A stretch of 64,000 nt of DNA from Escherichia coli O157:H7. Its GTDB lineage: Bacteria > Pseudomonadota > Gammaproteobacteria > Enterobacterales > Enterobacteriaceae. This document shows, in pieces, positions 2 through 53,626 of this stretch (position 1 is its first letter; each line of letters starts with the position of its first letter). Location: NCBI RefSeq assembly GCF_013167455.1, contig NZ_CP038328.1. The stretch is one strand, 5' to 3'. A program made the position numbers and the translations under genes. The notes below the pieces were generated by a model that was not told where the DNA came from, did not search any database, and worked only from the letters and a program-made list of their open reading frames with translations.

Positions 2-346
<345 letters not shown>

Positions 347-4254: not shown

Positions 4255-4360
4255 AGCTGCCTGATGCGCTATGCTTATCAGGCCTACATAGTCCCTGCAA
4301 TATATTGAATTAGCAAGGTTTTGTAGGCTGGATAAGGCGTTCACGCCGCATCCGGCAGTA
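4255..4360. repeat. REP (repetitive extragenic palindrome) pair between convergent torZ and cmoB
   Basis: gcctgatgcg...cttatcaggcctac and taggctggataaggcgttcacgccgcatccggca are classic REP sequences. Confidence 0.7.
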
Positions 4361-14440: not shown

Positions 14441-14675
14441 TCGGATTGGTCGCTCGCACCGCATCCGACATTGGCAGTGTGCCTGATGCGACGCTATTCG
14501 CGTCTTATCAGGCATATACCAGAGATAGCGAACCGTAGGTCGGAAAAGGCGCTCGCGCCGCATCCGACATTGGCAGTGTGCCTGATGCGACGCTGTTCGC
14601 GTCTTACCAGGCCTACCAGAGATAGCGAACCGTAGGTCGGATAAGGCGCTCGCGCCGCATCCGACAAATGTGTTC
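14441..14675. repeat. BIME-like cluster: tandem 98-bp units each carrying REP palindromes
   Basis: catccgacattggcagtgtgcctgatgcgacgct recurs at 14463 and 14561 (period 98 bp), with a partial third copy near 14655. Confidence 0.8.
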
Positions 14676-35592: not shown

Positions 35593-35677
35593 CATTTAAG
35601 CTGATGACCACCGCGCTTTTTATTGACCATTTTGCACGCAAACTGGAAAACCTGGCGTCGTCATCTATTCTTAAAGG

Positions 35678-35780
35678 GCAAGGCAACTAAGCCTGCATTA
35701 ATGCCAACTTTTAGCGCACGGCTCTCTCCCAAGAGCCATTTCCCTGGACCGAATACAGGAATCGTGTTCGGTCTCTTTTT
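35678..35780 (+). ncRNA. sdsR: SdsR (RyeB) sigma-S-dependent sRNA
   Basis: Sequence gcaaggcaactaagcctgcattaatgcc...gaccgaatacaggaatcgtgttcggtctcttttt recognised; sigma-S-like -10 CTATTCT at 35665..35671; terminal hairpin GACCGAA/TTCGGTC plus U-run. Confidence 0.8.
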
Positions 35781-35914
35781 ATCTGTTAAAAGCCAGAAGC
35801 ATTTCCTTCGCTGACTTTATAGTCAACCATAACACACACTCTACTGTCTGAGTCCAGCGTTTTTTAACATTCTTGTTAAGATTATGTGATCTTTAGCGCG
35901 GGAGGAAAATATTG

Positions 35915-50668: not shown

Positions 50669-51293
50669 AATTCATCCTGATTATACGCACTGTCATGGTG
50701 CAACTGCTTCAAATTAAAACTCTGGTCTGACTTCAAATAATTATCATATTATTTATTTGCGTAACGGGATATCAGAAAAAGATATTTACCCCATTAATTT
50801 ATTAGGATGTTTACATCGGATTTGTGATTAAGCGTGGTATTATTTATTAGCGAAACGTTTCTCTCTTGATTTTTTTTGCTTATTCATCAATTTTTCTTAT
50901 TTTAAATTTCCAATTCCTTTGGGATTGACTTCTCTTTGGGGTGATTGAGAGCCGTTAACTGCCTGTTTTATGAGAAAAAGTGATATAACTTTTTATTCAT
51001 TGCATAGCAGAAAATGTGATATTGCACGCACTATGTAATAACTTCTCCCACTGACCTGGAACAACTGAACTTATTGAACTATGTTAGAAACTACGTCAGT
51101 TTAAGTATCTGCGGAACTGACAAGGTTAAGCACAATGATATATCGGCGCGTATTCCGTTGCATAAGTGTGCAAAAAAAGTGGAAGACGTATCGAGATTTG
51201 TGCGTCTGATCGAGACATGTTTAAAAATGGCTTGCCATAATTAACGTTGTATGTGATAACAGATTTCGGGTTAAACGAGGTACAGTTCTGTTT

Positions 51294-51437
51294 ATGTGTG
51301 GCATTTTCAGTAAAGAAGTCCTGAGTAAACACGTTGACGTTGAATACCGCTTCTCTGCCGAGCCTTATATTGGTGCCTCATGCAGTAATGTGTCAGTTTT
51401 ATCTATGTTATGCCTGCGGGCGAAGAAAACAATCTAA
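51294..51437 (+). CDS. yobF: YobF, 47-aa small protein in the cspC leader; below the ORF-track size cutoff
   Basis: ATG 51294 to TAA 51435..51437; translation [47 protein letters not shown]; 12 nt before cspC. Confidence 0.8.
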
Positions 51438-51449
51438 GGAATTTTTCAA

Positions 51450-51659
51450 ATGGCAAAGATTAAAGGTCAGGTTAAGTGGTTCAACGAGTCTAAAGGTTTT
51501 GGCTTCATTACTCCTGCTGATGGCAGCAAAGACGTGTTCGTACACTTCTCCGCTATCCAGGGTAATGGCTTCAAAACTCTGGCTGAAGGTCAGAACGTTG
51601 AGTTCGAAATTCAGGACGGCCAGAAAGGTCCGGCAGCTGTTAACGTAACAGCTATCTGA
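51450..51659 (+). CDS. cspC: Cold-shock-domain protein CspC
   Basis: 69 aa; RNP1 motif KGFGFI. Confidence 0.95.
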
Positions 51660-51703
51660 TCGAATCCACTGATCTGAAGTGTGAATACGCTTCAATCTCG
51701 CTA

Positions 51704-51732
51704 TAAAGCCTCGTCGAATGCGAGGCTTTTTA
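51704..51732 (+). terminator. Rho-independent terminator after cspC
   Basis: aaagcctcgtcgaatgcgaggcttttt. Confidence 0.75.
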
Positions 51733-51824
51733 CTATGCTTTATCTTCGCTCCTGGCGTTCGGATATTTGCCCGCCGCGTGATTCGCGTTACACTTGCGGC
51801 CTTTAGTATCCTGCCGGAGTTGTC

Positions 51825-52634
51825 ATGTCGTTTTCCTGTCCACTTTGCCATCAGCCTCTTACGCGTGAAAAAAACAGCTATATCTGTCCCCAACGACATC
51901 AGTTTGATATGGCGAAAGAAGGGTATGTCAATCTGCTGCCCGTTCAGCATAAACGGTCTCGTGATCCGGGCGACAGCGCGGAAATGATGCAAGCACGCCG
52001 CGCATTCTTAGATGCCGGACATTATCAGCCGCTGCGTGATGCAATTGTCGCCCAACTGCGTGAACGGCTTAATGAAAAGGCCACGGCGGTGCTGGATATT
52101 GGCTGTGGTGAAGGGTATTACACACACGCATTTGCCGATGCGTTGCCCGAAATCACCACGTTTGGTCTGGATGTTTCGAAGGTAGCGATAAAAGCGGCGG
52201 CGAAACGCTATCCGCAGGTCACTCTTTGTGTCGCTTCCAGCCACCGTTTGCCGTTTTCCGATACCAGTATGGACGCCATAATACGTATTTACGCGCCGTG
52301 TAAAGCAGAAGAATTAGCACGAGTAGTGAAGCCCGGCGGCTGGGTCATTACTGCCACGCCGGGACCGCGACATTTGATGGAGCTGAAGGGGCTGATTTAC
52401 AATGAAGTACATCTTCATGCACCTCATGCAGAACAACTGGAAGGTTTTACATTACAGAAGAGTGATGAGTTGTGTTATCCGATGCGTCTTCGCGGTGATG
52501 AAGCCGTCGCATTATTGCAGATGACGCCGTTTGCCTGGCGTGCGAAGCCAGAAGTCTGGCAAATACTGGCAGCAAAAGAAGTGTTCGACTGCCAGACGGA
52601 CTTTAATATTCACCTCTGGCAGCGTTCTTATTAA
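51825..52634 (+). CDS. rlmA: 23S rRNA m1G745 methyltransferase RlmA
   Basis: 269 aa; N-terminal Cys4 zinc motif (CPLC...CPQRH), SAM motif DIGCGEGY. Confidence 0.9.
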
Positions 52635-53197
52635 CCGTGGAAGTGCGTCCAGAGGATCTGGACGCCGATGCCGATCAGCACCAGCCCGCCGAGAATTTCC
52701 GCTTTTTTCCCAATAATTGAGCCGATAAAGCGACCAACCATCATCCCTAATGTCGACATAATCAAGGTTGCACAACCAATGGCCAATGCGGTCGCGATAA
52801 TGTTGACCTGAAGGAAAGCAAGACCAACACCCACAGCCATGGCATCCAGGCTGGTGGCAATCGCGGTGGTTACCAGTAGCCAGAAACCGTGCCGACGGCG
52901 CGGCTCTTCATCTTCATCATCTGCGCCACGAAAACCCTCAATAATCATTCGCCCGCCGAGGAATATCAGCAGCACAAACGCAATCCAGTGATTCCATTCA
53001 AGGACAAACCGGCTGGCTAACATGCCCATTCCCCAGCCGATCAGCGGCGTCAGGGTTTCGACGGCACCAAAAATAAGGCCGGTTCGCAATGCTTCAGAAA
53101 ATTTCGGTTTATGGAGGGTGGCACCTTTACCGATTGATGCAGCAAATGCATCCATCGACATACCAAACGCAAGAAGAACAGTAGCAGTGATATTCAT
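52631..53197 (-). CDS. mntP: Manganese exporter MntP
   Basis: 188 aa from the internal ATG ([18 protein letters not shown]); the 81 upstream codons of the ORF-track entry read through the riboswitch leader. Confidence 0.85.
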
Positions 53198-53435
53198 GAC
53201 AACGTCCTGACCGGGGTATCCATAAAACACATCATCGCCCCCAGCAAACATGCATACATGAACAACAAGCCGCGATGGGTTTTCGCGTTCATGCAGGCAT
53301 AGCGATTGATGTGCATATGGTCTCGCCTGACTGAAAGTCTTCAGTCCGTACGTGCCACGTTTTGCAACGAGTATGTTGACACGTACATTTCCGGAATCTG
53401 GAAATTGGCTACTCCCCAAATGAGGGCGCAACCTT
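53198..53435 (-). ncRNA. sraF: yybP-ykoY Mn2+ riboswitch (SraF) in the mntP 5' leader; 5' bound approximate
   Basis: Reverse complement of 53409..53418 reads GGGGAGUAGC, the hallmark yybP-ykoY motif; roughly 240-nt leader ahead of the mntP ATG. Confidence 0.7.
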
Positions 53436-53561
53436 AACATATTTTGAGAATATAAAACAACTGTTGGAATATATTATTTTATTGCTTTGTTGATAACGAT
53501 TTTCATTTAGATTTATATATCAATGAAACGTTATAATAAATAACAAATAAGGGAAGAGGTA

Positions 53562-53620
53562 ATATAGCCTAAGCTATGTCTGATTATTAAAAATACACTA
53601 AACATAGCTTTGGCTAAATT
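53562..53620. promoter_or_regulatory. Two candidate MntR operators upstream of the mntP promoter
   Basis: atatagcctaagctatgt (53562..53579) and aacatagctttggctaaa (53601..53618) resemble the MntR palindrome AACATAGC-N4-GCTATGTT. Confidence 0.55.
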
Positions 53621-53626
53621 AATAAC

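Follow-up and report, generated by a model that had tools for sequence, protein, structure and literature searches.

The closest known counterpart of the locus considered here is the mntP (yebN) region of Escherichia coli K-12 (Waters 2011; Dambach 2015; Price 2015, PDB 4Y1M; Prakash 2024; Stephen 2025). The K-12 mntP aptamer has been crystallised (PDB 4Y1M, as cited in PMC12153347), a metal-site role has been described for adenine A48 in its loop L3 (PMC12153347), and both Mn2+ binding and Mn-responsive expression have been published for this allele. The published outcome in K-12 is Mn-dependent activation of translation, that is, an ON switch, and Mn also gives partial escape from a bicyclomycin-sensitive, Rho-dependent termination in the leader and the early ORF. 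The expression platform is a single helix, and without Mn both P1.1 and L1 are disrupted once the transcript is ~205 nt long (PMC12153347). At the promoter, Mn-MntR and Mn-loaded Fur bind and relieve the silencing of mntP by H-NS (PMC8632737), and regulation of mntP by Fur is described in two sources (PMC11647493; PMC8632737). In what follows, Mn binding, the action of MntR, Fur and H-NS, translational control and Rho termination are taken from this literature on the K-12 allele.

We analysed a 64-kb stretch of DNA (hereafter the window) in which 53198..53626 is precisely the stretch between yobD and mntP on the E. coli O157:H7 chromosome. The 601 bases surrounding the mntP control region match E. 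coli O157:H7 chromosomes at 100% identity. Of 5,426 complete genomes of E. coli, 5,422 have the locus, and K-12 shares 99% identity with the window's control region across 455 nt. According to the annotation of identical sequence, the minus-strand gene order is manY, manZ, yobD, mntP, with rlmA convergent. The original prediction named the downstream gene as mntP, and this is borne out: the product matches the NCBIfam equivalog NF008546 at 414.6 bits over residues 1-188 of 188.

52631..53197, minus strand: mntP coding sequence, manganese efflux pump, 188 aa plus stop (NCBIfam equivalog and PGAP annotation of identical sequence)
53197..53195, minus strand: mntP ATG

The convergent mntP (minus strand) and rlmA (plus strand) share 4 nt of their stop codons (52631..52634), and therefore there is zero intergenic room for terminators.

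The K-12 and O157 regions represent one locus of a single species, with L1, L3, all the helices, the switch strand, the Shine-Dalgarno (SD) sequence, the promoter and both MntR boxes identical, and they share the gene order yobD-mntP-rlmA. Within the aptamer O157 departs from K-12 at only two positions, A for G at nt 18 and G for U in the P4 loop, both unpaired. The platform tip of O157 has one extra C and one G-for-A, there is one change in the stretch from the SD to the AUG, and the AT-rich promoter region has a few substitutions. We hold with great confidence that the region is the native, already known layered control region of E. coli mntP, comprising MntR and Fur acting against H-NS, a translational riboswitch, and Rho. 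In the original prediction, control had been described as dual, by protein and RNA; this is correct as far as it goes, but it undercounts the layers just listed. The mntP riboswitch, the promoter control by MntR, Fur and H-NS, and the coupling to Rho are all published, and biologically there is nothing new here. The present analysis itself shows the identity with K-12, the structure and covariation of the aptamer and the non-coding character of the leader, and it shows that the two helices competing for CCAUA, like the MntR and Fur boxes, are conserved.

The extent of the leader follows from the published numbering. With +1 placed at 53423, position A11 falls in L1 and A48 in L3 (numbering of PMC12153347), and both land on adenines; the same placement yields a 225-nt leader in K-12. 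From these sequence landmarks we infer the exact transcription start, 53423, and the promoter hexamers of the O157 strain:

53198..53423, minus strand: mntP 5' untranslated leader, 226 nt (+1 placed from the published A11/A48 numbering)
53205..53208, minus strand: mntP Shine-Dalgarno AGGA, 7 nt 5' of the ATG (read from the sequence)
53431..53439 and 53455..53460, minus strand: putative promoter, with extended -10 TGnTAAGGT at the former, -35 TTGTTT at the latter and an 18-nt spacer (from the transcription start and conservation)

The leader had been estimated at about 240 nt, which overstates its length by about 14 nt, apparently because it was counted from the ORF ATG at 53440, upstream of +1. 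The promoter span 53431..53460 (minus strand) is near-invariant across 77 species. A consensus promoter scanner did not pick up the assigned mntP promoter, because it demands a better hexamer match. Between the -10 element and +1, the heptamer TGCGCCC (53424..53430, minus strand) is likewise near-invariant in 77 species though, by the inferred start, untranscribed; it may represent a conserved discriminator or mark an extra upstream start. Between the MntR boxes and the promoter (53450..53600), GC content drops to 18-23%.

The first half of the leader is occupied by the aptamer, which sits 117 nt 5' of the ATG of mntP, in the leader of a Mn exporter gene. Its elements are as follows:

53314..53422, minus strand: yybP-ykoY Mn2+ aptamer, four-way junction (RF00080 at 40.1 bits, and covariation)
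53416-53422 with 53314-53320, minus strand: helix P1.1 (folding coordinates)
53407-53409 with 53325-53327, minus strand: helix P1.2
53400-53405 with 53387-53392, minus strand: helix P2
53380-53386 with 53348-53354, minus strand: helix P3.1
53366-53369 with 53358-53361, minus strand: helix P3.2
53340-53346 with 53329-53335, minus strand: helix P4
53408..53417, minus strand: L1 5' strand GGGGAGUAGC, the family signature (unique in the window, invariant in 72 species)
53370..53379, minus strand: L3 loop UCAACAUACU, in which metal-site adenine A48 lies at 53376 (little or no variation among 72 species)
53319..53324, minus strand: L1 3' strand GAGA followed by CC that closes P1.1 (GAGACC; GCGAGAC invariant in 72 species)

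To assess conservation, we gathered the mntP locus of 80 species of Enterobacteriaceae, which yielded an alignment of 72 distinct aptamers. The L1 strand GGGGAGUAG, the L3 loop and the 3' GCGAGAC vary little or not at all among the 72. As for the SD, almost all of the 78 orthologous leaders retain GGUC(A/U)GGAC. In the window, GGGGAGTAGC occurs once, on the minus strand at 53408..53417 (chance expectation 0.06), and GGGGAGUAG has its exact match at 53409..53417, unique within the 64 kb. The signature had been predicted at 53409..53418 (minus strand), so the motif was recognised correctly and its coordinates were 1 nt off. The pairing scheme is equally well conserved: standard pairs make up 96.2% of the 2,372 cells of the four-way junction, whereas only 25–46% of cells are paired when partner strands are slid by 1–3 columns as a control. 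Compensatory, double-sided changes affect 18 of the 33 aptamer pairs, including co-variation at all seven pairs of P4 (7/7), and none of 500 shuffles matched the observed values of pairing and covariation. By these sequence comparisons the yybP-ykoY Mn2+ aptamer at 53314..53422 (minus strand) is real. The invariant L1 and L3, the covariation in 72 species and the Rfam results described below all uphold the yybP-ykoY Mn riboswitch put forward in the original prediction.

The Rfam scans call for some care in reading. At the default (gathering) thresholds, six RNAs were reported in the 64-kb window and RF00080 was not among them. A permissive scan of the leader returned RF00080 at 53329..53425 (minus strand) with 40.1 bits (E=2e-9; gathering score 45), as the sole significant Rfam family on the mntP leader. 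The sub-threshold score is a limit of model sensitivity, because the crystallised aptamer of K-12 MG1655 also falls below 45, at 41.6 bits; the threshold is operational, not biological. RF00080 was matched at the homologous position in 16 of 16 orthologous leaders scanned, with scores of 35.5-53.1 for aptamers that align column for column; six of these aptamers reach at least 45 bits, and the other 10 enterobacterial species are missed. The alignment shows that the Rfam 15 model terminates past P4, leaving the conserved 3' GAGACC/P1.1 strand unscored. An RF00080 search over 53198..53435 had been proposed as the check on the riboswitch, with no hit to count against it; the default scan gave no match and the permissive scan did. 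Since the validated K-12 aptamer scores below the threshold, such a check is unsafe at default settings. A riboswitch feature is absent both from the PGAP annotation here and from the K-12 feature tables. For annotation, the lesson is that Rfam at its gathering score misses a validated E. coli riboswitch, K-12 included.

Other Rfam matches lie elsewhere in the window. At gathering thresholds, these include the sRNAs MicL at 37..344 (plus strand), the antisense pair SraC/RyeA–SdsR/RyeB at 35640..35784 (both strands), naRNA4 at 14538..14613 (plus strand) and ES036 at 4280..4322 (minus strand). A 'cspA thermoregulator' match (51274..51734, plus strand, 136.9 bits) lies at a gene named cspE by PGAP and covers a 47-aa upstream ORF (51294..51437) and a 69-aa ORF of the cold-shock family (51450..51659). 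As it lies largely over coding sequence, this match may reflect homology among Csp genes rather than a thermosensor.

Downstream of the aptamer, the leader folds into the expression platform:

53227..53313, minus strand: expression-platform hairpin (folding; Escherichia alignment)
53275..53287, minus strand: hairpin tip of 13 nt, characteristic for E. coli and missing in other Escherichia species
53220..53224, minus strand: switch strand UAUGG, nt 200-204, the 'riboswitching point', which competes with the 5' strand of P1.1

The target contested by UAUGG and the P1.1 5' strand is the invariant CCAUA at 53316..53320. In the unconstrained minimum free energy fold, nt 104–117 (CCAUAUGCACAUCA; from the P1.1 3' strand onward) pair with nt ~190–205 (UGAUGUGUUUUAUGG), and this alternative helix forms the base of one long platform hairpin. 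The helix is conserved, with 88.5% pairing across 47 distinct species versus 23–53% when slid, and its position at nt 190-204 agrees with the published ~205-nt switch point.

We also asked whether the ribosome-binding site (RBS) opens more easily in a mimic of the Mn-bound state. Equilibrium folding of 78 species gave no such effect (mean -0.55 kcal/mol), with the difference in opening energy positive in 14 species and negative in 37, and unpaired probabilities from equilibrium folding likewise indicated no RBS opening in the mimic. These null calculations agree with the published finding that equilibrium-refolded mntP RNA fails to switch (PMC12153347). At the RBS, published probing saw no Mn-dependent reactivity (PMC12153347).

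At the tip of the platform hairpin, the 13-nt segment is present in essentially all E. coli, missing in E. albertii, E. whittamii and other Escherichia, and polymorphic within E. coli through a 1-nt indel, the stem being weaker in K-12. In the window strain the segment folds as a small GC hairpin with GCUUGUUGUU after it, and a terminator scan flagged this structure. We rejected this terminator-like hairpin (53271..53287) as a conserved terminator, because the tip is specific to E. coli, its stem is weakened in K-12 and other Escherichia lack it.

Upstream of the promoter lie the candidate protein-binding sites:

53562..53579: proximal MntR box ATATAGC-CTAA-GCTATGT (plus strand), centred at about -147.5 from +1
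53602..53619: distal MntR box ACATAGC-TTTG-GCTAAAT (plus strand), centred at about -187.5 from +1
53492..53510, minus strand: Fur-box-like site CTAAATGAAAATCGTTATC, 14/19 consensus positions, centred near -78

The palindromes had been predicted at 53562..53579 and 53601..53618; the first position is exact, and the second is 1 nt off its best register. We took as an MntR operator an inverted repeat of the form (A/T)(C/T)ATAGC-N4-GCTAT(G/A)T, as at mntH, and both boxes are of this form. The proximal core ATAGCCTAAGCTAT (53564..53577) has no mismatches to ATAGC-N4-GCTAT and the distal core (53604..53617) has one; elsewhere in the 64-kb window only two more sites occur at one mismatch or fewer. 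Two such sites inside a 429-bp spacer are far beyond chance. In the K-12 genome sequence the mntH operator reads ACATAGC-AAAG-GCTATGT, with the same half-sites and spacer length as the boxes in the window. In 72 of 77 species both boxes occupy fixed places, at about −200 and −160 relative to L1, and 65 of 66 distinct species have them 40-45 bp apart (51 in the remaining one). The half-site columns are ~95-100% conserved and the spacer columns mixed, the pattern of a protein-contact footprint. Judged by sequence and its conservation, the two boxes are MntR-type operators; the assignment to MntR in the original prediction holds, given half-sites and spacing equal to those of the mntH operator and a footprint in 72 of 77 species. 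Binding of Mn-MntR at mntP and its regulatory effect were reportedly described by Waters in 2011 and by Dambach in 2015. Such binding and regulation also feature in PMC9806134, PMC8632737 and PMC11647493.

The Fur-like site matches 14 of the 19 positions of the consensus GATAATGATAATCATTATC; six sites in the window score at least 14/19, so that the score alone is weak, but the site keeps one fixed position in nearly all species. Low GC content and a conserved Fur-like box fit the published model in which H-NS silencing is relieved. A 24-codon ORF at 53531..53605 (minus strand) has its ATG within the distal MntR box (GCTATGTTT) and crosses the proximal box; it is probably meaningless.

Several other readings of the region were weighed. 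Taken as codons, the leader could supply either an 81-aa N-terminal extension of MntP, through the 269-aa ORF present at 52631..53440 (minus strand), or a real 40-aa protein, from a 40-codon ORF at 53194..53316 (minus strand) whose stop overlaps the mntP start as ATGA and would couple the two; we give this next to no credence. Both frames are open in the O157 strain, and PGAP calls the shorter one a 'hypothetical protein' (WP_000547919.1) in genomes identical to the window. However, both frames are scrambled by the 1-nt indel that K-12, like most E. coli, has in the platform loop: K-12 is left with an unfused 81-aa ORF and with a 27-aa ORF whose C-terminus differs, and genomes with this common indel carry no PGAP call of the 40-aa protein. 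Neither ORF is conserved across the 80 species or matches any NCBIfam family; the ATG of the longer one, at 53440, is upstream of the transcription start, that of the shorter one (53314..53316) belongs to helix P1.1, and sequence change in the leader tracks RNA pairing rather than codons. In view of the indel, the missing family and the unconserved frame, both were rejected as genes. It is the extra C of O157 that makes the leader 226 nt long and opens the artefactual 269-aa and 40-aa ORFs. The former had been dismissed as an artefact in the original prediction, rightly so, as the K-12 indel breaks its frame and the extension has no family match. The PGAP call WP_000547919.1 is almost certainly spurious. 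Two lessons for annotation are that a naive ORF track joins the leader to mntP and that PGAP calls a 40-aa protein within the expression platform in some genomes. A much shorter ORF fares a little better, although we still consider it very unlikely to matter: with Mn bound, the closed P1.1 would free the AUG at 53221..53223, and translation of nine codons through the mntP SD would expose the RBS, with translation coupled and Rho blocked as the outcome. This 9-codon ORF would end at a UGA overlapping the mntP AUG, and Escherichia, many Citrobacter and Kosakonia have an ATG at -26 in frame with the ATGA overlap. In folding, the apo structure hides the AUG and the aptamer-enforced structure exposes it, and the gating of the RBS is explained neither by equilibrium folding nor by published probing. 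Against this, UAUGG is universal but lies 25 to 28 nt from the mntP ATG depending on genus, with neither frame nor stop conserved; its pairing with the invariant CCAUA of P1.1 fully accounts for the AUG; and the AUG at 53221..53223 has no SD-like sequence at a suitable distance upstream. In the literature searched, neither yobI nor a uORF in the mntP leader is reported. Because the distance from UAUGG to the ATG, and hence the reading frame, varies among genera, we rejected the short uORF as a conserved feature. Narrowed to Escherichia, Citrobacter and Kosakonia, the idea that Mn-dependent unmasking of the uORF, rather than direct unmasking of the SD, couples the state of the aptamer to mntP translation and Rho escape is, if anything, a shade less probable still; if true, it would fill the RBS-gating step that published probing could not resolve.

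The paired palindromes likewise admit a second reading, in which, besides or instead of binding MntR, they pair with each other into a single long hairpin or cruciform immediately behind yobD, for instance as a 3'-end or stability element of that gene. This is unlikely, though the least far-fetched of these alternatives. The arms (53560-53579 and 53602-53621) are 90% complementary over 20 nt around a 22-nt loop and start 6 nt past the yobD stop, and a permissive Rfam scan gave generic hairpin (miRNA-precursor-like) matches there on both strands. Yet palindromes of the same consensus are necessarily complementary to one another. The 4-nt spacers of the two boxes are mutually complementary at 2.47 of 4 positions versus 1.60 of 4 with shuffled species partners (0/2000), but this control ignores phylogeny, and Klebsiella and Raoultella reach only 0-2 of 4. 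The stem of the box pair is AT-rich and has no T-run, and therefore is not a canonical intrinsic terminator; a terminator scanner found none there. Moreover, conservation falls on the half-sites, just as they stand in the mntH operator, a pattern indicative of recognition by a protein. Given the complementary spacers, the box pair (53560..53621) could nevertheless form a hairpin or cruciform with 20-bp arms.

The reading we prefer, a layered control region with MntR operators upstream and a translational riboswitch in the leader, suggests the following course of events. H-NS would silence the AT-rich mntP promoter region (18-23% GC). As Mn2+ rises, Mn-MntR would occupy the two far-upstream boxes and Mn-loaded Fur would bind nearby, and together they would lift silencing and permit transcription from 53423. 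The first ~110 nt of the transcript would then fold into the four-way-junction aptamer of the yybP-ykoY family, in which Mn2+ held between L1 and L3 would keep P1.1 closed. Without Mn2+, once transcription has passed ~205 nt, the downstream UAUGG would invade P1.1 by pairing with CCAUA, and the aptamer would open. The RBS region would become less available, translation would be uncoupled from transcription, and Rho would terminate the uncoupled transcript in the leader and early coding region. The net result would be a translational switch that Mn turns ON and that affects transcription by way of Rho.

The proposed arrangement can be set against other members of the family and other manganese efflux genes. 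E. coli alx (PRE), the second E. coli yybP-ykoY member, is likewise a translational Mn ON switch on a Mn exporter, although its riboswitch is not located in the window. The alx aptamer differs in L3 and is built as a three-way junction, whereas that of mntP is a four-way junction; alx is also strongly pH-responsive and its platform comprises two helices and an intrinsic terminator, in contrast to the single helix of mntP (PMC12153347). The Gram-positive yybP-ykoY riboswitches (B. subtilis yybP/ykoY, L. lactis yoaB) have the same architecture, the same Mn2+ ligand and the same P1.1 switch helix, but they prevent intrinsic termination, whereas E. coli mntP gates translation and thereby Rho-dependent termination. 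At the promoter, a parallel is provided by B. subtilis mneP/mneS, where Mn-MntR activates an efflux gene through several upstream boxes, as at mntP. The B. subtilis genes differ in having another box sequence, three boxes and no H-NS anti-silencing, while the E. coli mntP boxes, ~147 and ~187 bp upstream of +1, function jointly with Fur. Seen across the comparative set of 72 aptamers and 66 box pairs, the architecture is fixed throughout Enterobacteriaceae, from both MntR boxes and the Fur-like box through promoter, aptamer and switch strand to the SD.
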